Below, piece after piece: positions 3,809 to 35,318 of a stretch of 64,000 nt of DNA. The notes under the pieces are model-generated. The model saw nothing but the letters and a program-made list of their open reading frames with translations, made no database searches and had not been told where the DNA came from. Source of the DNA: Candidatus Omnitrophota bacterium (GTDB taxonomy: Bacteria; Omnitrophota; Gorgyraeia; Gygaellales; Profunditerraquicolaceae). A program made the translations under genes and the position numbers. Numbering within the stretch: position 1 is the first letter of the stretch; every line of letters begins with the position of its first letter. The stretch is from the NCBI GenBank assembly GCA_022710715.1, contig JAKLGJ010000003.1, forward strand, positions 25,083 to 89,082, read 5' to 3'.

Positions 3809-4279
3809 TTACTCAATCGGATCCTCGGCTGAACCGTCCCAGGGAACAGCAGTCTGGGCTCCGGGATCAGCTGCGCGGAGAACTCCCGATGTGTCGACAT
3901 AGAAGCACCTGACGCCGGTTGTACCCCAGGTGACCGGACAGGATGAAGCCGTGAATCCCTGCCAGTTGCCTGCGCCTACCGTAGCTTCGTCAATACCGGT
4001 AAGTTCGAAGTTGTAACCCTGTTTGGTACCGGCAGCCAGAATACTGTCGATGTACGGAGGTGTATCGTCGTCAAGAATAGCCAGATTGGTCGGGTATCCC
4101 TGATGCGAAGAACGATACGTATGAGCGCCGGATGAGATCGTCTTGAGTGCTGCGATCGCTGCCGATTCATTCGCCGCCAAACGGGCTCTAAGCAAGTTGG
4201 GAATTGCTATAGCCGCCAGCAACGCGATGATCGCCACAACGATCATGATTTCCACGAGCGTAAAACCTTTCCTATTCAT
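3809..4279 (-). CDS. major type IV pilin / type II secretion pseudopilin G-like protein
   Basis: MNRKGFTLVEIMIVVAIIALLAAIAIPNLLRARLAANESAAIAALK is a canonical PilA/PulG N-terminus. Confidence 0.8.
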   Translation of the reverse strand: MNRKGFTLVEIMIVVAIIALLAAIAIPNLLRARLAANESAAIAALKTISSGAHTYRSSHQGYPTNLAILDDDTPPYIDSILAAGTKQGYNFELTGIDEATVGAGNWQGFTASSCPVTWGTTGVRCFYVDTSGVLRAADPGAQTAVPWDGSAEDPIE

Positions 4280-4436: not shown

Positions 4437-4582
4437 GGAAAATATGTTTGGTTTCAACAACTTAAGATATAAATTTGTTTAATTTCCTCAACACTGCTCC
4501 CCTCCGGTCAAACCGGAGGGGTTCGCTGGAAACAAAACGGCCTTAAGGTAAAACCTTAAGGCCATCTTAATAGTTTTACCCT

Positions 4583-4720
4583 CTTTGGCGGCTAGGCTAT
4601 CCGTATGCGCGAATACCAGGCGCATATGGATCCTTCGGCTTTGCTCCGTAGCCGGCCTTCGGCCGGATACGAACCCGCCAGTCTACGGCGGGGTCGCCCG
4701 ATTACTCGGGTTTTGCCTTT
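4583..4720 (+). ncRNA. candidate structured small RNA (unidentified family)
   Basis: GC-rich multi-hairpin region in a 650-bp gene-free gap. It has two cUUCGg tetraloop hairpins that are stable only in the plus-strand sense, an 11-bp stem AUCCGUAUGCG/CGCAUAUGGAU, and a closing helix UGGCGG...CCGCCA. It ends in a terminator-like CCCGAUUACUCGGG followed by UUUUGCCUUU. Confidence 0.35.
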
Positions 4721-4933
4721 ATCAGTAGGATAAAGATCTTTCTAGCTAAGCATAGCACATTCTACCCCGTTTGTCAAAGATCGAACCTCTTGATCGTCGA
4801 GCTTTAAACAAAAGAAAACATTCGCTACTCATGGTGAGAGGGTCAGTCTCAAACAAAGCATACCATAATTTTAGCCCTTTGTCAACTCATTGTTGATTTT
4901 TTATCAATTGCGATTAGAATACTTCAGGCGGGT

Positions 4934-7111
4934 TTAATTAGCGCCGGACTGACGCCTTTTATAACTTTGTGAAATGCTGAACTCGGTTTCGGGGAAAGCC
5001 TTAAGCCGGAAGATCAACCAGATAGAACTTCCTTCGTCACGATCAACGCTATACGAAACATCCATCAACCAGCAATGCAGATCACGGGATAAAGTGAATT
5101 CCTGTTCGCCGAATCCTTTCTCCAGCGAATCGGTATCGCGCAACTGATAACGCTGATACATAAAAAACTTCCATTTGGGGGTCAACCGGTAATTAAAACT
5201 GCCGGTGATCTCATTGCCCCCCTTGCGTTGATAACGCTGTCCGATCCCAACGGAACGCTCCGGGCCGAAATCATAATAAAAATCGTAGTTGGCGCCGGAA
5301 AAATAATCATACCGGTGGGAATAGGTCGCGTCGGCATCAAAACGCACACGCGTATACGGCTTTATTTCCAGGTCGCCCGTAATATCGCCGAGATAACTGC
5401 CGGCTAGACCGCCGGATTTAAAAAAGTACTGGCTGGCGAGTTTAAAGTACGCTAAATCCACGGTGGATTTGTTGCGTTTGGTCTGCAATCGGTTATCCAG
5501 CTCCAGCAACGCGGAGTTGCTTCCGGCGATAGCGTCAACTGCGTCGAGCTGCTTTAACCGGCTGGTCGGTTCAGTCGGCGTATGAAGATAGTTATAGCCG
5601 ACGGTAGGCGTGATCACATGGCGCAATCCGTTGATATCCAGACCGAAGGCGTTGCTCTGCACGTCGAAAATCCGGTAAAATTTCGTGCTGACATCGGCCC
5701 CGGTAAGGAACTGATTACGCGGCGACGCCCACATATCCCGGTTGTCGATATCGCGGTCATACAGCGTCTGGCGCATACCCGCATACGGAGTGAGGTTGAA
5801 AAAAGCCACCCGCGACGGCAAAGAAAGTTTGTTCGTGGTATCCAGCCGGTTCATGCTCACGTCCGCGCTCGCCGGAGAAGGAACCGCGTTTTTATAATTC
5901 AGGCTGGAAAAAGAACTGGAATCGCTGAAATAAAACGGGGTCTGCCCCAGCTGGATACTGGGCAGGCTGTAGTTGACTTCCGGCAGCTTCTCCAGCTGGC
6001 TGTACCAGCGGTTGACGCGTTTCTGCACCACCGTGTCGATGGTAGAATAACCGAAGGACTGATGCAGCTGCGTGTAGGATAACGGCAACGCATCCTTCTC
6101 GTATTCCCGGTAAAAATAATCCTTGAGAAAATTATGCTCGCTGCCCAGATTCGCGCGTTTGGAGTCGGTGATCCGATAAAACTCGGTAGTCAAGCTGGTG
6201 GAATCGGCTATCTGCCATTGATGACGCAACCGCACCAGGGAGCGTTCGAATTCTCCGGGCTGGTTCTCAAGCAATTCCCGGTCGCGTTCCTGGGTATAAT
6301 AAAATTTGTAATCGCCTTTGCCGTAATCTTCGGTGCGGAAATTCGCGCCCACGCCTTCCGACATACCCAGGCGGCTGCGGTAATCGAGATAGATCCTGGC
6401 GTCAAGACCGGGCATCAGGTTCGACCGCCAGGCGGAAAGCAGGTATTCGCCCCAGTCCTTGCTGCGCCCGGGCACGAATCGCACATGCATAAAAGGATCT
6501 TTCAAACTCTGGCTGTAATAAGGCAGATACGCGATCGGCAGGTTTTTGATCCGCACCGTGTCGGAATAGGTCTGGATCTTCTCCTGCGGGAGTATGCGCA
6601 CCCGCTTCATCCGAATGCGGTAATCCGGCTTGTCCATGGAGCAGGAAGAGACATAGCCGTCGTAGGCGATGAATTCGTCTTCGTTGACCATCTTGATCTC
6701 GCGGGCTATCCCGTAAAACGGATCCGACACAAAGGTGCCGTCGATCGCCTTGCCGCTTTTAGTGTTCAGATTGTAATACACCTGGCTGCCTTCCAGACGG
6801 GCCTGGGGATTCTCGATGCGCACCGTTCCTTCGGCAGTGACGTCCTTGGTTTGGGTATCCACGGTAATCTTATCGCTGGTCAGGGTGGAATCCCCATATT
6901 TGACCACCACATTGCCGGTAGCCGAAACGTGCTGCTGATCGGTCGAGTATTCCACGGTGTCGCCGTTGACGGTAACCGGTTGTTCCAGCCGGCCGGCGCC
7001 TTTGTTAACGTCCGCGGCAAAACTCGAACGAACGGCGCTCTCCCCGATGCAGAACGCCATGAGAATAGCGATTGAAAGCGTGCGAAACAGATGAGTGTAG
7101 TGTGTGGGCAT
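4934..7111 (-). CDS. lptD: LPS-assembly outer membrane protein LptD (OstA)
   Basis: Signal peptide followed by an OstA-like N-terminal domain (VTVNGDTVEYSTDQQHVSATGNVVVKYGDSTLTSDKITVD...). The long C-terminal region is beta-barrel-like, aromatic-rich and ends in an aromatic residue. Confidence 0.7.
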   Translation of the reverse strand: MPTHYTHLFRTLSIAILMAFCIGESAVRSSFAADVNKGAGRLEQPVTVNGDTVEYSTDQQHVSATGNVVVKYGDSTLTSDKITVDTQTKDVTAEGTVRIENPQARLEGSQVYYNLNTKSGKAIDGTFVSDPFYGIAREIKMVNEDEFIAYDGYVSSCSMDKPDYRIRMKRVRILPQEKIQTYSDTVRIKNLPIAYLPYYSQSLKDPFMHVRFVPGRSKDWGEYLLSAWRSNLMPGLDARIYLDYRSRLGMSEGVGANFRTEDYGKGDYKFYYTQERDRELLENQPGEFERSLVRLRHQWQIADSTSLTTEFYRITDSKRANLGSEHNFLKDYFYREYEKDALPLSYTQLHQSFGYSTIDTVVQKRVNRWYSQLEKLPEVNYSLPSIQLGQTPFYFSDSSSFSSLNYKNAVPSPASADVSMNRLDTTNKLSLPSRVAFFNLTPYAGMRQTLYDRDIDNRDMWASPRNQFLTGADVSTKFYRIFDVQSNAFGLDINGLRHVITPTVGYNYLHTPTEPTSRLKQLDAVDAIAGSNSALLELDNRLQTKRNKSTVDLAYFKLASQYFFKSGGLAGSYLGDITGDLEIKPYTRVRFDADATYSHRYDYFSGANYDFYYDFGPERSVGIGQRYQRKGGNEITGSFNYRLTPKWKFFMYQRYQLRDTDSLEKGFGEQEFTLSRDLHCWLMDVSYSVDRDEGSSIWLIFRLKAFPETEFSISQSYKRRQSGAN

Positions 7112-8814: not shown

Positions 8815-9354
8815 ATGCGCATACACGTGCCACTCTGTTTACTGTTGATTTTAGTGTCAGCGACTTCCGCTTGTGCCGCGGCGAAAAATGAGGAAACAGT
8901 CACCATTACCACGTACTATCCCTCCCCTTATGGAGTGTATAACGTCATCCGTCTGCATCCTGACACCAAAGCCGAAGGTTCGGAATGCAAAACCGGTGAA
9001 TTATACTACGAGAACATGGGGACCTCTACCCGTCCGACCGGATTGTATTTCTGCAACGACACCGAACGCTGGGAACGCTTAAACTATAAACCCCAGTTCG
9101 AGCTGGGCGGAATGTATCAAAACGGTGAATATCCATCCGCCACATCGACCAACTGTCCAAAAGGTCCGGCGCAAAATTCCTTCACTCCGTCTCGCAACCC
9201 TTGTTGCGAACACGTCAATCCATTGAACAACAACCAATGCGGCTGCCCGGAAGGATACATTGCGGTGTGCATGGACGACGCGATCGAACCACAGGACACT
9301 GACGGACGCGACCGGCGCGACGAGACCTGCTACTGCTACAAAAAGAACTTCTAA
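8815..9354 (+). CDS. secreted Cys-rich hypothetical protein
   Basis: Signal peptide MRIHVPLCLLLILVSATSACAA, about 10 Cys, GGAGA SD upstream. Confidence 0.55.
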   Translation: MRIHVPLCLLLILVSATSACAAAKNEETVTITTYYPSPYGVYNVIRLHPDTKAEGSECKTGELYYENMGTSTRPTGLYFCNDTERWERLNYKPQFELGGMYQNGEYPSATSTNCPKGPAQNSFTPSRNPCCEHVNPLNNNQCGCPEGYIAVCMDDAIEPQDTDGRDRRDETCYCYKKNF

Positions 9355-9484
9355 ACAGAAAGCGCTTCCAAACCGAACCGTCTCTAACTGACTGATAAAA
9401 TTAGAGTTACATCACGGCTTGTTAACAAAGTCAATATCTGGCTTCCAGGCCTTGAATTCCTTCTTTCCCCCTGTTACACTTAAT

Positions 9485-9622
9485 TGGAGTTAAAGTATTC
9501 TTATCGAAAAGGGCTCCGGGGGGATTACTGGGGGCCAAAGCCACGGATCGGTAAGCATTATTCTTTTATGCGTTTCGATAACCGGGTTGCCGAAATAAGA
9601 ATCAGCGGCGACGCGGTTTTTT
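9485..9622 (+). promoter_or_regulatory. conserved structured 5' leader with intrinsic terminator (possible divergent c-di-GMP-I/GEMM-like riboswitch)
   Basis: Contains CAAAGCCACGGAUCGGUAAG and UUUCGAUAACCGGGUUGCC...GGCGACGCGGUUUUUU. Both blocks are shared with the two minus-strand leaders at 31.7 and 34.2 kb. It ends 40 nt before the ATG at 9664. Confidence 0.45.
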
Positions 9623-9663
9623 CATTTCTTACACAACAGCTCATCTACCTGGGGGGGGGAACG

Positions 9664-12600
9664 ATGCTGACACGCTGCCTGAAATTTCTTTCTGCTTTCC
9701 TTATTATCTTCAATCTGGCAATTCCGGCAAGTTACGCTGATTTCGCGGTAGCGCCGTATAAACGCTATCCGCTGGCTTCAGGCCGCTCCGCTGCGCCGGC
9801 AACTCCAACTACTCAACAACCGGCCAACGCTGTGACACCTGCGGTAACTCCCGCTGCGACCCCGGCGCAATCAACGCCGGCAGCGCGGACAAGTACGCCT
9901 TTTGTGCGCTCAACCCCCTTGCAGACGAAACAGCCCGCGACTACGACCGCTCCGGCGGCTTCAAAATCGTCCACTTCACCGGCGCCGGTTGTAACTCCCG
10001 CGACGCCCCCGGCGCAGTCAACGCCGGCAGTGCGAAGAACCACTCCATTCGTGCGCTCCACTCCCTTGCAGACTAAACAACCCGCGACCACGGCCGCTCC
10101 GACTACTCAACAACCGTCCAGCACTCCTGCGCCTGCGGCAACTTCGGCACAGACAACTCCGGTAGCACGGACAAGCACGCCTTTTGTGCGCTCGACTCCC
10201 TTGCAGACGAAACAGCCCGCTACCACGGCCGCTCCGGCAGCCCAACAGCCAGCGGTGACTCCGGCGCAGACAGTTCCGGCGGTTACTCCCGCAGCAGCGC
10301 CAGCCACACCGGCTGTCGCGGCTAATCCGGTATCCCTGATCCCCGCTTATCAAAACCCGACTCCGGCATTCGGAACCAGACATACAACTGCTGCAACTAC
10401 AGCTACCAGCCTGGCGCAGATGAGCCCGGAGCAACAGGCCAGTCATATCAACTCTTTATCCGGATATGACGCCGCCCAGATGCTTGCCCGGCTCGACCAG
10501 AACCAGCTCAAACAGGTCATGGCCCAGCCCGGACTGAAGACCGACCTGCTTTCTAAAGTCAGCCCGTTCATTACCCCTGCTTCTTTTGCCGGGCTCACTC
10601 AATCCATGAACGCCGAGCAGATTTCCGCAGCCCTTTCCGCTGCGCCGCTGAACGCGGAAACTTACGCAAAAATACTGGAAAACTGCCCCCAGGCCGCGAC
10701 TGGAATGAAAACATTGATCAAGTCAGACCCGAATAAAGCTTTAAGCGCCATTACGGGGATGAGCGTAAACAAACAGGGCGAAGTATTCAGCCAGCTCGAC
10801 AGCAAAGATATCGCCGCACTGTTCAATGCCCGGACTTCCGACGGCTCGGACCCCAGGGACAACTCCGATCTTTTCGCCCGGCTTTCCCCGGACCAGCAAA
10901 ACAGCGTGTTGAAGGAATTGAGCGCGGTTAACCCGGCGCTGGCCCAGAAATACCTGTACGCGACCACCCAGTCCCTTACCAGAGGCACCAGCGAAGACGC
11001 AAAAGCCAAGCTTTCCGGCGACAGCGCATCTTCCGTTGACCATCCCGGATTGCTGGTAAACGATATGAACCCGGATCAACTTAAAGCGCTTCTGGGCGTG
11101 TGTCAGCCCGGAACTCTCGGCGCGATCCTGGCGGACAGCAAACTGAATACGGCGACCCGCAAACGCATCCTGGATATCATGAAAACCAGCTTCGAGAAAG
11201 CCGGGAATATCGAACAGACCGTGCTCTCTGCCAATGCCAACAAAGTTCCGCAGGACCCGCAACAGTACCTTTTCGATCTGGCCTGGACAACCTACTCCAC
11301 GCTCGATCCGGAAGGCGCTAAGGAAGATTTGAACTCGATCCAGTCCGCGGTAACCGGCTACAACCAGCGCCGCCAGGAATCGGTATTGAAACAGATCGCC
11401 GGAATGGATACCTCACGGGCAGGCGAGCTTCTGGCGCAAACCGACATTTCGGTAGCCCAGACCGCGCAGTTGATCATGTCCGCCTCCGGAGAGCAGAAAG
11501 CGAAGCTGCTGTCCGCGCTGGAACAATCCGATCCGGAGAAGGCAAAAGAAACCAAAACCATGATCAGCCGGATCGAGGAAAACAACCGCAAAGCCGCGCA
11601 GATAGAGAAAAACAACGAACAGGTGCGCAGCACCCTGAAGAAAGTCGGGCCGTCACCGGTAGCCGACTATTTCATCCGGAAAGGCAGTTCCGAACAGACT
11701 ATCGGGGAGCTGGCCCTGATGGACCAGAAATTCATCGACCAGACCCTGTCTTTGATCGAAAAGAAATCGCCCAAGACTGCCGCGCAGGTGCGCAAAGACC
11801 TGGCCGCATACCGGCAAAAAGCTTCTGCTTCGACCACCGTAGATCAACACCTGGACAATCTGGTGAAAGGCTCGGCGCAGGATGCGGCGCTTTTCATTGC
11901 CGCGCAGACTCCGGCAAACGCTAAGAATATTCTTTCGGAACTGGCCAAACGCAACGCATCGTTTGCGGAAGCAACCCTGGCGCAGCTCAAGAAGGTTGAC
12001 TACCAGCTTGCCGACGAAACCCAGAAAAAAGACACCCGCCGCCTGACCAAGAACGAACTGGGGCAACCCATCATTATCGACGGAGAGAACGTCTATCAAG
12101 TGGAAGAGCTTTCCGACGGCACCATCCTCACCCACAGGAGCACCGGAACGGTCAACAACACGAATCTCGGTAAGATCAACGATTCTCCGCAGAATACCGA
12201 GCTGGCCGCGGGCGTTAAGCCAGTCGATATCGACCTGCAGAAGCCCAGGATATACCTTACCGGACAAACCGCCACCGATAACAGCGTAACGATCACCCCG
12301 GGTTCCGGCAGCTCTACTCCCAAGGACGCCTGGTACGATCCGGTGAACAAGCGCTACGGCGACAGCACCAGCATCGGCAGCACGCCCAAGCCGGAATGGA
12401 ATATCAAACGGGAAATAACCTATGACGGGATCGGCAAGCTGACCTTCAAAGGTCAGCTTGACCCGCAAACAGGCGCGCCCCTCGACGGAACAGAGATGAC
12501 CGACGAGAAAGGGCACATCTTCACCGCGGTCACCAAAACCAGCCCGACTTCAGACAAACAGGTCGCCATCCCCGTGCAGACAACCTACCATGCCGGGGAC

Positions 12601-13023
12601 AATCTAACTCTGACTGACGGAACCGAATTGACTTTCAAGAGAGATACCCGGGTGAACCCGGGAATCGGAGAACTGCCGGCAGGCACGGAATTAACCGACA
12701 AAAAAGGCCGGCTGTTCGCTGTGGCGCCGGTCACCAATCCGGCCACAGGCAACCAGGTCTTCACCTACCAGCAGATAAGCTATAACGCCGGAGACACCGT
12801 TGAACTGAAAGACGGGACCACATTGACCTTCAAACAGGACACGATAGCCGACCCGAACACCCTGAAGTTCAAAACCAATGCAATACTCACGGATAAGGAC
12901 GGAAACTACTGGGAAGCCTTCGGAACTGTGACCAGCTTGCAATTCAAACAAATCAATCCAGCGACAGTTGAAAAAGACTGGAAGGTGTTCGACCCGGCAA
13001 CCGGACGTTTAGCCGGTAAATAA
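9664..13023 (+). CDS. giant secreted repeat protein (Pro/Thr/Ala-rich tandem repeats, helical middle, C-terminal beta repeats)
   Basis: The start is moved to ATG 9664 (MLTRCLKFLSAFLIIFNLAIPASYA signal peptide, G-rich SD). The track's longer N-terminus translates the upstream leader RNA. The protein has 3.5 tandem repeats of about 45 aa (STPFVRSTPLQTKQPATTAAP). At the C-terminus LTLTDGTELTFKRDT and VELKDGTTLTFKQDT are duplicated. Confidence 0.6.
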   Translation: MLTRCLKFLSAFLIIFNLAIPASYADFAVAPYKRYPLASGRSAAPATPTTQQPANAVTPAVTPAATPAQSTPAARTSTPFVRSTPLQTKQPATTTAPAASKSSTSPAPVVTPATPPAQSTPAVRRTTPFVRSTPLQTKQPATTAAPTTQQPSSTPAPAATSAQTTPVARTSTPFVRSTPLQTKQPATTAAPAAQQPAVTPAQTVPAVTPAAAPATPAVAANPVSLIPAYQNPTPAFGTRHTTAATTATSLAQMSPEQQASHINSLSGYDAAQMLARLDQNQLKQVMAQPGLKTDLLSKVSPFITPASFAGLTQSMNAEQISAALSAAPLNAETYAKILENCPQAATGMKTLIKSDPNKALSAITGMSVNKQGEVFSQLDSKDIAALFNARTSDGSDPRDNSDLFARLSPDQQNSVLKELSAVNPALAQKYLYATTQSLTRGTSEDAKAKLSGDSASSVDHPGLLVNDMNPDQLKALLGVCQPGTLGAILADSKLNTATRKRILDIMKTSFEKAGNIEQTVLSANANKVPQDPQQYLFDLAWTTYSTLDPEGAKEDLNSIQSAVTGYNQRRQESVLKQIAGMDTSRAGELLAQTDISVAQTAQLIMSASGEQKAKLLSALEQSDPEKAKETKTMISRIEENNRKAAQIEKNNEQVRSTLKKVGPSPVADYFIRKGSSEQTIGELALMDQKFIDQTLSLIEKKSPKTAAQVRKDLAAYRQKASASTTVDQHLDNLVKGSAQDAALFIAAQTPANAKNILSELAKRNASFAEATLAQLKKVDYQLADETQKKDTRRLTKNELGQPIIIDGENVYQVEELSDGTILTHRSTGTVNNTNLGKINDSPQNTELAAGVKPVDIDLQKPRIYLTGQTATDNSVTITPGSGSSTPKDAWYDPVNKRYGDSTSIGSTPKPEWNIKREITYDGIGKLTFKGQLDPQTGAPLDGTEMTDEKGHIFTAVTKTSPTSDKQVAIPVQTTYHAGDNLTLTDGTELTFKRDTRVNPGIGELPAGTELTDKKGRLFAVAPVTNPATGNQVFTYQQISYNAGDTVELKDGTTLTFKQDTIADPNTLKFKTNAILTDKDGNYWEAFGTVTSLQFKQINPATVEKDWKVFDPATGRLAGK
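9840..10270. repeat. imperfect tandem DNA repeats (about 135-147 bp period) inside the giant secreted protein gene
   Basis: cttgcagac(g/t)aaaca(g/a)cccgc recurs at 9918, 10065 and 10200. Confidence 0.7.
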
Positions 13024-14004
13024 TTCCACTTTATTGCGCCCGGATTTTTTGGCCTGATACAACGCTTTGTCCGCGTTATCCAGCAATCCCGCCAGCTCTT
13101 TACCCTGCTGCGGGAACAATGAGATCCCGACACTCACCGTGACGTCTATCCGCTCGTCATATGCCACTACCGGTTTGCTCTGTATGCCCGCGCGGATACG
13201 CTCCGCCACGAACAACGCCCCCTCTTTATTGGTTTCGGTCAAGAGAATGGCGAACTCCTCCCCCCCGTATTTACCGATAAGATCGACCTGACGGATGTGC
13301 GCTTTGATCCGCTGCGCGACTTCCTTGAGTATCGCGTCCCCTACCAGATGGCCGTAATGATCGTTGATATCCTTGAAATGGTCGACATCAAGCATCAAAC
13401 AGGCGCAGGCATAATTAAAAGCCCTGGAACGGGATAATTCCTCCGACGAACGCCCCCACCAGTACCTGCGCGCCGATACCTGGGTCAGTCCGTCGATAGT
13501 GGCCATCTCCTGCACTTTCTGATACAGAATGGCGCGTTTCATTCCCAGCAGGAATTGCTGGGAAAGAATGGTGAATTTATCCCGGTCTTCCCGGCGTACC
13601 GGCGCGACGACCAGATAATTCATCAGCTGGTCTTCCAGCCGCAGAGGCACTATCGCGTATTCCTTGAACGCCGCCAGATCGGCGTCCGCGGGAACGAACC
13701 GGCAGTCTTCGACAGCCAGCATTTTGTGCAGCTTCTCCTTAAAAACCGAAAACACCTTATCCTGATCGAGATGGCTGCACAATTCCCGGGTGATATCGTA
13801 TAAGGTCATGGTCTGCTCCAGCCGGTTGCGTAAATCCATGTTCTGCCCGGTAAGCTGATCGTATTCCTGCAGCAGCCGCTGATAATCAGCCTGACGCAGC
13901 TTCCCTTCGCGCTGCGCCGACAGCACGCGCCTGGCGAAAAACCGCTCCAGCCTGAAATAGAGAAGCATGGTGAGCAAAACAAGGATCGCAATCTGGATAA
14001 ACAT
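13009..14004 (-). CDS. membrane-anchored diguanylate cyclase (GGDEF domain)
   Basis: N-terminal TM helix. C-terminal motifs are RYGGEEFAILL (GGEEF active site) and DVDHFKDINDHYGH. Confidence 0.8.
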   Translation of the reverse strand: MFIQIAILVLLTMLLYFRLERFFARRVLSAQREGKLRQADYQRLLQEYDQLTGQNMDLRNRLEQTMTLYDITRELCSHLDQDKVFSVFKEKLHKMLAVEDCRFVPADADLAAFKEYAIVPLRLEDQLMNYLVVAPVRREDRDKFTILSQQFLLGMKRAILYQKVQEMATIDGLTQVSARRYWWGRSSEELSRSRAFNYACACLMLDVDHFKDINDHYGHLVGDAILKEVAQRIKAHIRQVDLIGKYGGEEFAILLTETNKEGALFVAERIRAGIQSKPVVAYDERIDVTVSVGISLFPQQGKELAGLLDNADKALYQAKKSGRNKVELFTG

Positions 14005-14005
14005 G

Positions 14006-15178
14006 CTAAGCTCCGATCACCAAATTCCTGCCCTTACTTTTGGCTTCATACAGGGCGCGGTCCGCTTTCATAAGCAACTCGATCTCTTCCTGCGCGTCAT
14101 GGGGAAATTCCGCTACACCCACGGAGATAGTGCACTGATTACGCTGCCTGCGCAATAAGAGCTCCCTGGCGGCAACCGCTTTGCGCAGGTTTTCCGCGAT
14201 CTTCAACCCGGTATTCTTATCGGTATCCGGCAGCAATACGCAAAACTCTTCTCCGCCGAACCGGCAGACTACGGCGGGTATCTGCGCGAGAGCCTCGCTC
14301 ACCGCTTTACTGATGGTTACCAGCACGATATCCCCCGCGGCGTGACCGAACGTATCGTTGAGTTTCTTGAAATTATCGATATCCAGCATCAGCAGGCAGA
14401 GCGAGCGCGGATGCCGGTACGTTCTTCGGCATTCGGTCTTAAGCATCTCCAGAAAATACCCTTTATTGAACAACCCGGTCAATCCGTCATGAATGGCCAT
14501 GGTCCGCGCGTCCTTGTACAGCTGCGCATTCTCCAGAGAAACCGCTCCCAGCTCCGCGATGGTCATGAAGAAACGCAGATCGTCCTGGGCGAAGAAACGC
14601 TTGTGCTGATGCTCAAGACGGATCAAACCAATGACCTTTCCCCCGCTGATCAGCGGCACTTCGATCAACGAAGCGATCGGGCGCGGGTCGGCGCGGCGCA
14701 CTTTATCAGCGTCGAAGCGGAAATCCTTGGAGATATCCTCGACCAGCAGCGGACTGGCGTGGCGCAGCACCCAGTGATCGAAACTGTCCCCCTCCTTGGC
14801 TTTGATCACGATCGCGCGTTCGTCTTTAAGTGTCTTGAAGAGGACTAACTTCTGGGTTGAACCGTCGAGCAGATATAACAGGCACTCTCCCTGATTATCG
14901 GCCAGCAGGAAGAACGAAATTGCGCAGAGCTGCTCGGCAACCGCATCCAGGGAAAGCTCCTGGTTCAGCAGTTCGATGATACGTTTAAGATTTTCGTAGC
15001 GTTCGATGCGCCGCTGCAGGAACTGGGTGTTCGCGCGCTCCTGCTGATTGGATGCCGACTGAACATTGATGTTCTCCTGAACGCCGTCACCGTCGAGTTT
15101 GAGCTTATAGAGTTGCCGGGAATTTCGCTGGGCGAGCCAGATGACCGCGGGGAGATTGCCCAGATAAAAAACCGCCAA
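14006..15178 (-). CDS. GAF-domain diguanylate cyclase (GGDEF)
   Basis: TM N-terminus, central GAF-like region, then RFGGEEFCVLL and DIDNFKKLNDTFGH. Confidence 0.8.
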   Translation of the reverse strand: MAVFYLGNLPAVIWLAQRNSRQLYKLKLDGDGVQENINVQSASNQQERANTQFLQRRIERYENLKRIIELLNQELSLDAVAEQLCAISFFLLADNQGECLLYLLDGSTQKLVLFKTLKDERAIVIKAKEGDSFDHWVLRHASPLLVEDISKDFRFDADKVRRADPRPIASLIEVPLISGGKVIGLIRLEHQHKRFFAQDDLRFFMTIAELGAVSLENAQLYKDARTMAIHDGLTGLFNKGYFLEMLKTECRRTYRHPRSLCLLMLDIDNFKKLNDTFGHAAGDIVLVTISKAVSEALAQIPAVVCRFGGEEFCVLLPDTDKNTGLKIAENLRKAVAARELLLRRQRNQCTISVGVAEFPHDAQEEIELLMKADRALYEAKSKGRNLVIGA

Positions 15179-28283: not shown

Positions 28284-29537
28284 CTAATTGCCGTTCTGCG
28301 GCCAGACCACAGGTTCCCATTTATTTTCGTTGGTCAGGCCGAGTAGAACATTATTTATCACCTTGTACTGATTGCGGAACTCTTCCCGCATTCCGCCGGG
28401 ACGATACTCCACCGTGTCATCGGCGCTCTTGAACACATCGAAGTATCCGTTGTCGTCGAGATCTATGGCGCCGACGCCGCCATACAGATGATAACCCGCA
28501 TTCCAGTTTATCGCATCCGCCGCGGGCTTGCTCACGGCTGCCGGAACTTCGATGACTGCCTCGCCTGCGTCCGACACAGCATACTCCCCTGCGGTGCGGG
28601 GATTGAAGTTCTCGTTGGGCAGATCGTAGTACGTCCCGGAACCGTCAGGATCCACGGCGATCACCGAGCCCGTGGCGATCATATAATCGTGCGAATTAAG
28701 GACTGCGTTCATATCGCCGTATTTTATCTGCGCCGCCGGATACTGCTTGCCGATGGTATCGAGTATTGCCTTAGCGTCGTCCGGCTGCATCGAATTCAGG
28801 ATATCGTAGGCCTGATCGAGCTGCATGTCTTTCGGATTAGCCAGGATCTGAATTGCCAGGTCCATTCCTCCGCTTGTCGCCTGGCTTTTGTAAATCCCGG
28901 TCATTACCGTCCCCGCCTGTGCGGGGTCCATCGTACCCAGAACCCGGGCGACCTGGCCCACGTCCACTTTGGCCATCGCGCCCATCACCTGCGTCACTTG
29001 AGCGGTATCCATCTGATTGAATATCTGCGCTTTTTCGCCGGCATTAAGATAGGTGCTGCCCATCACCGAGGACAGCTTACCCGTATCCATCTGATTGCCC
29101 ACTATTGCCGCCGCCACCGCAGGCATATTCTTTATGGTATAAGCGGCGCGGTCGGTAGGCAGCGCATTGAATGCGCCCGCAACCAGCGCGGACTTGTTAT
29201 CGGCAACCAGCTGCGTGCTCACCAGGGCATTGACTTTGGTGTCGAGGGTAACCATCAGCCTGGCGGTATCGCCCGCAGTAGTAAAAGCGCTGGCTTTCTG
29301 ATAGGCGTTGCCTGCAGCCAGCTGTTGGCCCGAGCTTAAGGAAGCAGGCGAGGCAAACGTCTTGCTGCCGGTAGACACCTGCTGCTTGCCGCCGCTATCG
29401 ACAGCCTGGCCGGTTTCGGAGCGGGTCCAGACCCCGTTATTCCAGTAATTATAGGCCCAGGCATTCCCGCCTGCGCTTGCCGCTGCCAGGCCGCAGAGCA
29501 CCGCGCAGAGCAATACTACCGAACTGTACTTTTTCAT
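28284..29537 (-). CDS. secreted hypothetical protein
   Basis: Signal peptide MKKYSSVVLLCAVLCGLAAASA. Lies 57 bp downstream of the 29595 gene, so probably co-transcribed. Confidence 0.5.
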   Translation of the reverse strand: MKKYSSVVLLCAVLCGLAAASAGGNAWAYNYWNNGVWTRSETGQAVDSGGKQQVSTGSKTFASPASLSSGQQLAAGNAYQKASAFTTAGDTARLMVTLDTKVNALVSTQLVADNKSALVAGAFNALPTDRAAYTIKNMPAVAAAIVGNQMDTGKLSSVMGSTYLNAGEKAQIFNQMDTAQVTQVMGAMAKVDVGQVARVLGTMDPAQAGTVMTGIYKSQATSGGMDLAIQILANPKDMQLDQAYDILNSMQPDDAKAILDTIGKQYPAAQIKYGDMNAVLNSHDYMIATGSVIAVDPDGSGTYYDLPNENFNPRTAGEYAVSDAGEAVIEVPAAVSKPAADAINWNAGYHLYGGVGAIDLDDNGYFDVFKSADDTVEYRPGGMREEFRNQYKVINNVLLGLTNENKWEPVVWPQNGN

Positions 29538-31654: not shown

Positions 31655-31862
31655 CCTTAAAACAAAACAACCGAGTTGCACTATCCAGGCAACCCGGCTA
31701 TCGAATATAATTTATTTCAGGGTTTTTAAAAGACCTTAAAATGAACTCTAACTAATTTCTCCCGTATTTCCCCTGAAACAAACTGCGTGTTACTTTCGAC
31801 CCGTGGCTTTCCGTCCCCGCCTTACGACGGGTTTGGCTTTGTCGTCACAAGTATGCCATATC
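31655..31862 (-). promoter_or_regulatory. c-di-GMP-I (GEMM)-like riboswitch candidate with terminator expression platform
   Basis: The minus-strand RNA reads GACGACAAAGCCAAACCCGUCGUAAGGCGGGGACGGAAAGCCACGGGUCGAAAG. It aligns position by position with the Vc2 GEMM aptamer: GGGCAAACC / hairpin with GNRA loop / GGGACGCAAAGCCUCCGG. It is followed by a 9-bp terminator stem CCGGGUUGC / GCAACUCGG and UUGUUUUGUUUU at 31659-31697. Confidence 0.55.
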
Positions 31863-31950
31863 AACTTCAGAAATTCAAGTCTTTGTTCCCGACTTTTGCT
31901 TCCGTTTACGCTACCAAGATCAAAATCAGGCTCGAACACGCTTATCAATG

Positions 31951-34117: not shown

Positions 34118-34370
34118 AGACAACAAAAAAACCGAGTTGCGCTTGTTCGGCAACCCGGCTATCGAATAGATTGTTTGAGGGTTTTAAAAAGAGTTTAAGA
34201 TCAACTCAAAAAAAATTTCTGTTCCCCATTCCCCCAAAACAAATTGTCAGTTACTTTCGACCCGTGGCTTTCCTTCGGCGTGTTCATGCTGCGTTTCAAC
34301 CGAACTCCCGTCTGGGAGGTCCCCGCCTTACGACGAGTTTGGCTTTGTCGTTCAAAGTATGCCATACTTA
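34118..34370 (-). promoter_or_regulatory. second copy of the GEMM-like leader (with ~45-nt hairpin insertion) plus conserved terminator
   Basis: Matches copy 1 (...UAUGGCAUACUU..GACGACAAAGCCAAAC.CGUCGUAAGGCGGGGAC..GGAAAGCCACGGGUCGAAAGUAAC...) except for an inserted CUCCCAGACGGGAGUUCGG...CCGAA block. The terminator CCGGGUUGC / GCAACUCGG followed by UUUUUUUG is at 34121-34158. Confidence 0.45.
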
Positions 34371-34394
34371 ACCGAGGTTTTCAAGAGTCAAAAG

Positions 34395-35318
34395 CTAACT
34401 TTTGTTTCTTTTTACAATTTTTTGCAAAATCACACTTTTAGCAATACCCGGCCCGACCTTCACCCATACAATCCGCCTGTCCTTACGGAACCAGGTCATC
34501 TGCCGGCGGGCGTAGCGGCGGGTATTGCGCTGCATCAATTCTTTTGCGCCCTGCTCATCCAGCCCGCCCTCAAGATAACTTTTAACCTCCTGTATGCCGA
34601 TAGCGCAGGCAGCAGTCCGGCTAAGCTTTTTCTTCAAAAGCCTCTTCACTTCCTTGACCAGCCCCTGATCGAACATTTCCTCTACCCGCCGGTTGATCCG
34701 CTCATACAAAATGTCGCGATCCATATCCAGGCCGATGATCCGGACATCATATTCTTTATCCAATCCTTTGCGGGTTTGCTGCAGCCGGGAGATGGGAACT
34801 CCGGCTACCGCAAAAACCTCCAACGCCCGCACAATACGCTTGGTATCATTGGGATGGATTTTTCGCGCCGCCGGCGGATCGACCTCTTGCAGTCGAGCGT
34901 GCAACGCCGCGCTGCCCTGCTCCCGGGCCTGCTTGAACAACCGCGCCCGCACGCGGGGATCTTCGGTCTTGACTTCAAATATCCCATCCACCACGATCGA
35001 CATATACAATCCGCTGCCTCCCACGAACAACGGGATGCGGCCGAGGTTGATGATCGTTTTGATCGCTTTGAGCGCTCGGCGGCGGTATTCGGAAACATTG
35101 AATTCATCTTCGGGACTGACTATGCCCAGCAGATGATGCGCAACAGCAGCGCGCTGCGCGGCCGTGGGTTTCGAGCTTAAAATATCCATGCCTTTATACA
35201 CCTGCATGGAATCGCAGGAAATGATCTGCGCGCCGATCTTTTTCGCCAGCGGAATGGAAAGACCGGTTTTGCCGACCGCAGTCGGTCCGACCAGAAATAT
35301 GACTTTCGCGCGTTTCAT
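34395..35318 (-). CDS. miaA: tRNA dimethylallyltransferase
   Basis: VIFLVGPTAVGKTGLSIPLAKKIGAQIISCDSMQVYKGMDI is the MiaA P-loop and signature. Confidence 0.85.
   Translation of the reverse strand: MKRAKVIFLVGPTAVGKTGLSIPLAKKIGAQIISCDSMQVYKGMDILSSKPTAAQRAAVAHHLLGIVSPEDEFNVSEYRRRALKAIKTIINLGRIPLFVGGSGLYMSIVVDGIFEVKTEDPRVRARLFKQAREQGSAALHARLQEVDPPAARKIHPNDTKRIVRALEVFAVAGVPISRLQQTRKGLDKEYDVRIIGLDMDRDILYERINRRVEEMFDQGLVKEVKRLLKKKLSRTAACAIGIQEVKSYLEGGLDEQGAKELMQRNTRRYARRQMTWFRKDRRIVWVKVGPGIAKSVILQKIVKRNKS

Follow-up and report, generated by a model that had tools for sequence, protein, structure and literature searches.

The leader at positions 9485–9622 on the plus strand of the window (the whole stretch of 64,000 nucleotides analyzed here), lying in front of a gene for a 1119-residue secreted protein, probably constitutes a complete riboswitch of c-di-GMP class I (the GEMM-I family) that acts as a transcriptional ON switch, a reading to which we assign a probability of roughly 0.6. 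That the leader is a transcriptional ON riboswitch unit derived from GEMM-I appears nearly certain, and it has likely retained c-di-GMP sensing. We file it as a structural variant within an established class of riboswitches, not as a routine member, because it lacks two structural hallmarks of the family and falls short of the Rfam threshold. Its homology, its fold, the terminator overlapping the aptamer, and the recurrence of the variant form are established.

The aptamer, a three-helix one of a variant GEMM-I (c-di-GMP-I) type, spans 9496–9602(+), as delimited by the covariance model R2, by RF03167, and by unconstrained folding. With R2, the second of our covariance models, which was built from relatives in other loci with the window sequences left out, this segment scored 74.8 bits (E ~ 8e-22), whereas the best non-family match in the 64-kb window reached 11.5 bits; the concern that the blocks shared among leaders might be too short to be significant, which had been named as a possible refutation, is thereby dispelled. 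A scan of the window with Rfam at gathering thresholds gave no match at 9503, its sole match being 31684–31846(–) (RF03167, c-di-GMP-I-GGC, clan CL00126, 61 bits). With E-value reporting, RF03167 additionally matched 9503–9595(+) at 31.3 bits (E = 1e-5 in a local scan and 0.002 for the whole window), below its gathering score of 59, and 34145–34352(–) at 31.0 bits, so that RF03167 was the top-scoring Rfam model for all three leaders noted at the outset. Four GEMM-I elements were found in the 64-kb window, and one of the four passes the Rfam gathering threshold. Because these thresholds catch so few of the window elements, c-di-GMP-controlled genes would be under-annotated in these poorly studied lineages, probably Omnitrophota, judging from the sources of the promoter motif and of the nearest relatives; the genes in question encode mostly large secreted proteins without assigned function and a pilin-like protein.

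For the anatomy of the aptamer, numbering was mapped onto that of Vibrio cholerae Vc2, with base pairs taken from PMC11705072 and contact roles from PMC6140456. The 5' strand of P1 (UUCUUAUCG, 9498–9506) pairs with 9591–9601, with an AA bulge (9593–9594) on the 3' side, and is followed by the junction AAAAG (9507–9511), whose G9511 corresponds to Vc2 G20 by model alignment. Then come P1a, a plain hairpin (9512–9536) with the strands GGCUCC and GGGGCC, two further pairs, and a 7-nt loop; the linker AAA (9537–9539), beginning with A9537 at the place of Vc2 A47; and the P1b helix (9539–9588; AGCC-A-CGGAUCG against CGAU-AA-CCGGGUU), in which A9580 and A9581 are bulged and A9581 stands at the position of Vc2 G83. 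A GC junction (9589–9590) supplies C9590 as the equivalent of Vc2 C92. Two hairpins closed by P1, that is, a three-way junction, were obtained both from the covariance-model alignment and from unconstrained folding; indeed, the minimum-energy fold of 9487–9602 computed without constraints consists of exactly P1, P1a, and P1b.

In Vc2, G20 reads one guanine of c-di-GMP and C92 is the Watson–Crick partner of the second (PMC6140456), and the linker of GEMM aptamers is 'virtually always AAA' (PMC1950547). The window element carries the full set, with G9511, A9537, and C9590 by model alignment and AAA at 9537–9539. Position 20 is G in 58 of the 61 relatives and was in none of the search patterns, whereas A47 and C92, which both scan patterns fixed, are conserved in most relatives partly as an outcome of the search itself. 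Because the predicted contacts G9511, A9537, and C9590 are canonical, c-di-GMP, not cGAMP, is the likely ligand of 9496–9602; an A at position 20 marks the cGAMP-type pocket of GEMM-Ib (PMC6140456), and the element has G9511 there. In general layout, too, it resembles c-di-GMP-I/GEMM-I (RF01051, CL00126; represented by Vc2 and by Clostridioides difficile Cd1) in the three-helix junction, the G20/A47/C92 set, the AAA linker, the P1b core GCCACGG...CCGGGUUGC, and its location in the 5' untranslated region of a gene for an extracellular or membrane protein.

The c-di-GMP-I-GGC family (RF03167) has a closely similar P1b and junction sequence but differs in its consensus (GCGAAgCc), where the first linker position is G; the window element has A9537, both sister elements on the minus strand likewise have A, and only the element at 31.7 kb reaches the gathering score. 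The 'GGC' of the family name, which we take to denote positions 20, 47, and 92, is therefore unfit as a label for the window elements, with their linkers starting with A. A changed specificity, toward 3',3'-cGAMP, pGpG, or another dinucleotide as in GEMM-Ib and the Rfam 'GGC/UAU' variant classes, is improbable. It would accord with RF03167, and not RF01051, being the best Rfam match, and with specificity switching nearby, as two relatives in the same clade as the G20 elements (L030:1342–1464(–) and L019:2372–2478(+)) have A20, the signature of cGAMP-sensing GEMM-Ib. However, the pocket holds the c-di-GMP set, with neither A20 nor the linker G of RF03167; the distal part of P1a makes no ligand contact in Vc2 (PMC6140456; PMC11705072); and the preference for RF03167 most likely reflects similarity of lineage.

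Relatives were collected by pattern scans of genome contigs, which yielded 24 loci (10 in Candidatus Omnitrophota MAGs and the rest in Planctomycetia, Desulfobacterales, and others) from contigs that did not include the window's own genome, and of metagenome contigs, which yielded 28 loci with a pattern (30-odd elements) that made no terminator requirement. A covariance model made from these relatives retrieved 69 elements, 63 of them distinct. Among the 63, in counts that come from the model-fitted alignment, 89.3% of the paired cells could pair (73.5% after shuffling); the covariation score was 0.421 (0.148 after shuffling), a value attained by 0 of 500 shuffles. Every slid register scored much worse. 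P1 covaries across relatives (permutation p = 0.0005), and the closing pair of P1a is C–G in 42 sequences and G–C in 19, the window element being of the G–C kind. The invariance of the P1b core is uninformative, as this core was fixed by the search patterns. No synteny was seen between the window and the fetched relative loci. At one of these loci (L021:5222–5326 and 5381–5513, the same as L032), two riboswitches stand in tandem before a single gene for a 716-residue secreted protein, each with its own terminator; the window element has its closest relative in the first of the two. Most of the metagenome loci L027–L053 (e.g., L041:11700–11760) have a conserved extra 5' leader in the interval between promoter and aptamer, composed of a U-run and a hairpin GCUCUUUAAUUAAGACUUUUAAAAAGUCUU, which is absent from all window leaders.

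Upstream of the aptamer lies a sigma-70-like promoter (9452–9480, +), with a –35 box TTGAAT (9452–9457), a 17-nt spacer, and a –10 box TACACT (9475–9480). The promoter block can be aligned at equal spacing in the three leaders (–35, TTGAAT/TTGAAA; –10, TACACT/CATACT), and transcription would start near 9487. A consensus scan of 9300–9700 for promoters and terminators gave no match, because the 13-nt loop of the terminator and the –10 box fall outside the scan rules; alignment and folding reveal both. Further upstream, a motif (A/G)CAAAAGT(T/C) occurs in exact form 8–20 nt before the –35 box in both minus-strand leaders (31874–31898(–) and 34380–34404(–)) and as a degenerate copy (AACAAAGTC, 9424–9432) in the plus-strand one. 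This motif might serve as an UP element or as a site for a regulator, which would add a second layer of control to the same genes. In the extended form (A/G)CAAAAGT(T/C)(A/G)G, it is found 8–20 nt 5' of a –35 box CTTGAA in most related units (e.g., L002, L010, L013, L040, L046, and L047).

The aptamer runs directly into an intrinsic terminator (9581–9622, +), whose 5' arm (ACCGGGUUGCCG, 9581–9592) lies within the aptamer and is followed by a loop (9593–9605), a 3' arm (CGGCGACGCGGU, 9606–9617), and a tract of six U (9617–9622); pairing of the arms amounts to –19.8 kcal/mol. The 5' arm is made up of A9581, the 3' strand of P1b, C9590, and the first two bases of P1. Thus, the aptamer 3' strand including the C92 equivalent serves as the terminator 5' arm, as in the pilM cGAMP riboswitch (GEMM-Ib) of Geobacter metallireducens, where the same sharing makes the two folds mutually exclusive and the ON logic has been documented experimentally (PMC9262584); pilM differs in having A20, sensing cGAMP, and keeping a canonical first hairpin, whereas the window element has G20. 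A terminator competing with the second hairpin was also described for 78 of 322 GEMM instances (PMC1950547). Of 62 relatives, 60 have this overlapping terminator, among them elements retrieved by the pattern without a terminator requirement, and its arms covary among them (UUGCC/GGCAA versus UUACC/GGUAA). The block UUCGAUAACCGGGUUGCC, which the sequence-only reading had taken for the expression platform, belongs to the aptamer as the P1b 3' strand, although it does double as the terminator 5' arm; the block GGAUCGGUAAG proved to be, in part, an alternative partner of the P1 5' strand.

Folding of transcripts of increasing length outlines how the two forms might alternate. With the transcript end at 9560, the minimum-energy fold pairs the P1 5' strand with CGGUAAG (9549–9555), a strand that we designate anti-P1 and that could act as the alternative partner of CUUAUCG (9500–9506); with the end at 9602, it is the complete aptamer (–35.6 kcal/mol, unconstrained); and with the end at 9625, the terminator form (–45.7 kcal/mol) is favored over the aptamer form (–32.4 kcal/mol). 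Among relatives, the anti-P1 pairing follows the sequence of the P1 5' strand (permutation p = 0.0035); it joins this strand to the distal 5' part of P1b and is strong only in the GGAUCG subfamily, which includes the window element. The anti-P1 helix may be a third state. Presumably, then, a nascent RNA started near 9487 would have its P1 5' strand held first by 9549–9555, and the three-helix aptamer (P1, P1a, and P1b) would become the most stable form once the RNA reaches 9602. Binding of c-di-GMP at G9511, A9537, and C9590 would lock P1 and P1b, exclude the terminator, and allow read-through into the gene for the 1119-residue protein, that is, an ON switch; without ligand, the P1b 3' strand, C9590, and the first two P1 bases would re-pair with 9606–9617, giving the form that is more stable by about 13 kcal/mol, and transcription would stop at the U tract. 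We infer the identity of the ligand, the ON logic in vivo, and the shift in affinity discussed below.

It is hardly tenable that the conserved blocks belong to something other than RNA, namely a promoter module repeated in the DNA or an N-terminal extension of the coding region. An open reading frame (9484–13023) does run through the leader from a TTG at 9484, and the promoter blocks are shared as well, but the compensatory changes preserve RNA pairs, a U-tract terminator would lie inside the supposed coding extension, and the G-rich ribosome-binding region, the ATG, and the signal peptide begin at 9664; the data thus already contradict this reading.

What sets the leader apart from RF01051 is its first hairpin, together with a score below the gathering threshold. 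The first hairpin of GEMM consists of 2-bp and 6-bp stems around a highly conserved 3-nt internal loop and is 'almost always' capped by a GNRA tetraloop, the receptor of which is often absent (PMC1950547). The P1a of canonical relatives has the form CC-AAA-6 bp-GNRA-6 bp-GAC-GG (CCAAACCCGUCGUAAGGCGGGGACGG). In contrast, 9512–9536 folds into a continuous 6-bp stem, a G–G mismatch, two pairs, and the 7-nt loop GGGAUUA, with a folding energy between about –11 and –13.6 kcal/mol, according to the register chosen; the AAA/GAC internal loop of 3 nt, the GNRA tetraloop, and the free C44 are all lacking. GGCUCC (9512–9517), a 13-nt loop, and GGGGCC (9531–9536) with no GNRA loop had been described correctly in the sequence-only reading, which had also suggested a comparison with 'type-2 (tetraloop-less)' GEMM variants. 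A literature search found no description of such a type, and the published family has the GNRA loop 'almost always' along with the internal loop (PMC1950547), whereas the element is without both and without the C44–G83 pair. The leader goes beyond the described variation of GEMM.

The missing parts are those that hold the two arms of the aptamer together. The arms of Vc2 are clamped twice, by a tetraloop–receptor stack (A33–A62) and by the C44–G83 Watson–Crick pair, and the G83C mutant is mostly unfolded (PMC11705072); similarly, tetraloop mutants of Cd1 and mutants at its C81 position do not bind (PMC9262584). In the window element, where A9581 stands at G83, neither the tetraloop–receptor contact nor the C44–G83 pair can be drawn, and both inter-arm tertiary contacts of Vc2 are, to judge from the sequence, missing. 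The change of G83 to A goes together with the loss of C44 and the GNRA loop. Indeed, all 40 relatives that have the GNRA loop and the free C44 retain G83, whereas it is altered in 10 of the 14 without both; Fisher tests gave p = 3e-6 for C44 and p = 1.5e-8 for GNRA, values that overstate the independence of these phylogenetically related sequences. A substitute contact in the form of loop–loop pairing between P1a and P1b was no better in the 14 variants than with shuffled loops. From the precedents of Vc2 (PMC11705072) and Cd1 (PMC9262584), an aptamer without both contacts might not bind c-di-GMP.

The plain-hairpin P1a is, moreover, recurrent: of 60 distinct relatives, 14 share it, and most of these come from MAGs of Candidatus Omnitrophota and from metagenomes. 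The 14 hairpins have no sequence relationship to one another; each is stable, with z between –1.9 and –6.1, and is inserted flush between G20 and A47, and position 20 is G in 14 of 14. These features bear on the main rival explanation, which we regard as unlikely: that the leader is a decayed GEMM-I riboswitch, blind to its ligand and acting as a constitutive attenuator that sets a low basal level or is read through by another factor. Decay would be consistent with the loss of both contacts needed by Vc2 and Cd1 (PMC11705072; PMC9262584), with the 13 kcal/mol in favor of the terminator form, and with the fast replacement of P1a that a pair of copies at the locus L040 shows to be possible. However, decay would not be expected to leave 14 unrelated P1a sequences that each form a stable hairpin exactly abutting G20 and A47, nor to keep G20, which lay outside the search patterns, in all 14; P1 covaries; the variant is kept before homologous genes in different MAGs; and a plain attenuator needs no aptamer. 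The L040 copies (137–257 and 1133–1253), 1 kb apart, have the same P1 and P1b, one with a canonical P1a and the other with a plain hairpin, which suggests a recent swap of the P1a arm alone.

If the leader is, as we prefer, a working riboswitch, the stripped aptamer would be expected to capture its ligand more weakly or more slowly, and the gene would thus respond at higher c-di-GMP than its neighbors with canonical aptamers. A wider proposal, which we put forward tentatively and hold to be possible but doubtful, is that a natural and recurrent sub-class of c-di-GMP-I, encountered so far chiefly in MAGs of Candidatus Omnitrophota and in related contigs from metagenomes, has shed both inter-arm contacts and still works as a sensor, that it is used beside canonical copies so that genes within one c-di-GMP regulon differ in threshold or kinetics, and that the covarying anti-P1 helix is a third state tuning the decision. 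Should the stripped aptamer sense c-di-GMP, the clamps deemed essential from Vc2 and Cd1 would be dispensable in nature, and pre-organization of the helices would then be the dial by which evolution sets ligand thresholds inside one regulon; should the element prove a dead relic, the finding would be an ordinary one.

The canonical neighbors are found on the minus strand. The element at 31676–31853(–), which precedes a gene for a 650-residue secreted protein, has a canonical P1a and an insertion of about 93 nt in P1b (RF03167, 61 bits; R2, 68.9 bits), and that at 34138–34359(–), which precedes a gene for a 662-residue secreted protein, has two extra hairpins in P1a and a P1b insertion of about 93 nt (R2, 47.3 bits). 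Both share with the plus-strand leader the promoter type, the P1b core, the junction bases, the overlapping terminator, and the class of target gene. In contrast to that leader, however, both retain G83 and the hairpin CC-AAA-stem-GUAA-stem-GAC-GG, and both carry the P1b insertion. The P1b-loop insertions at 31700–31800(–) and 34165–34265(–) (about 93 nt; 88 nt in the Rfam alignment) are alike by eye.

These comparisons bear out the proposal of the sequence-only reading that the leaders share one riboregulatory module, in that they are homologous GEMM-I units with a common promoter type, aptamer core, and overlapping terminator, and also that they precede secreted proteins, for which signal peptides were found. 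The shared 3' block TTCGATAACCGGGTTGCC occurs at 9574(+) and with one mismatch at 31688(–) and 34149(–), against a chance expectation of 0.03. For the 5' block, AAAGCCACGG.UCG is indeed present in the three leaders, but the 20-mer CAAAGCCACGGATCGGTAAG is unique to 9485–9622 even at 3 mismatches; by eye, about 14 of its 20 positions match the other two leaders, and the common part is the first 15 nt or so. The loci are not unlinked as had been thought, since all three lie within 25 kb, nor are they only three, since R1 and R2 add a fourth GEMM-I-like element at 4576–4733(–) (R1, 26.9 bits; R2, 29.7 bits; E ~ 6e-7), for which no Rfam match was obtained even at E < 0.1. About 296 nt 3' of it lies a gene (3809–4279(–), PF07963) whose pilin-like product bears a methylation motif at the N terminus. 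The P1a of this fourth element has two extra hairpins after GAC, the 3' strand of its P1b is divergent (GCCUAGCCGCC), and its terminator is separate and non-overlapping (approximately 4560–4525). In 34138–34359(–), L026:974–1131, and 4576–4733(–) alike, two extra hairpins are inserted in P1a after the GAC bulge and before the closing pairs, so that the first arm becomes a domain with several branches.

The gene controlled by the leader (9664–13023, +) begins with a ribosome-binding region consisting of a G run and an ATG at 9664–9666 (together 9651–9666, read from the sequence) and encodes a signal peptide, Pro/Thr-rich repeats, a middle part of helical repeats with weak similarity to MgtE_N, and a repeated C-terminal domain. 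The public gene call is an 867-residue protein starting from M253, so that the signal peptide and a Pro/Thr-rich region in which TPFVRSTPLQTKQPATT occurs three times (9664–10419) are left out; the 1119-residue reading is preferred because the riboswitch, the ribosome-binding region, and the signal peptide support it. A homologue search with the whole 1119-residue protein returned only itself, as the 867-residue public call, a search with the C-terminal 268 residues gave no match, and neither did an exact look-up of the 1119-residue form. Homology to proteins in L013, L044, and L041 comes from local BLAST only, in which the C-terminal domain was homologous to the proteins behind L013:560–651 (37% identity over 146 residues, E = 2e-13) and L044:3304–3401 (E = 1e-6). 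The elements of L013 and L044 both have a plain-hairpin P1a and have not kept G83, L013 reading AA and L044 being one bulge base short. No BLAST similarity was detected among the riboswitch-controlled proteins of the window; across the clade, nearly all downstream proteins start with signal peptides, and few have Pfam matches.

Convergent with the regulated gene are two genes of the GGDEF (diguanylate cyclase) type (13009–15178(–); PF00990, E = 1e-45 and 6e-44). A c-di-GMP regulon is a reasonable reading, since the fourth unit precedes the pilin-like gene and there are two adjoining GGDEF genes. Weak MgtE_N-like helical repeats were noticed in the proteins encoded at 28284–29537(–) and 9664–13023(+) (E ~ 1e-6 to 5e-7), which have no mutual BLAST similarity, and also in the protein after L040:1133. 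Runs of 6–9 G lie just 5' of the starts of the three riboswitch-controlled genes (9650–9659, 31640–31630(–), and 34075–34060(–)), and similar AGGGGG runs are found after the terminators of L010, L013, and L044.
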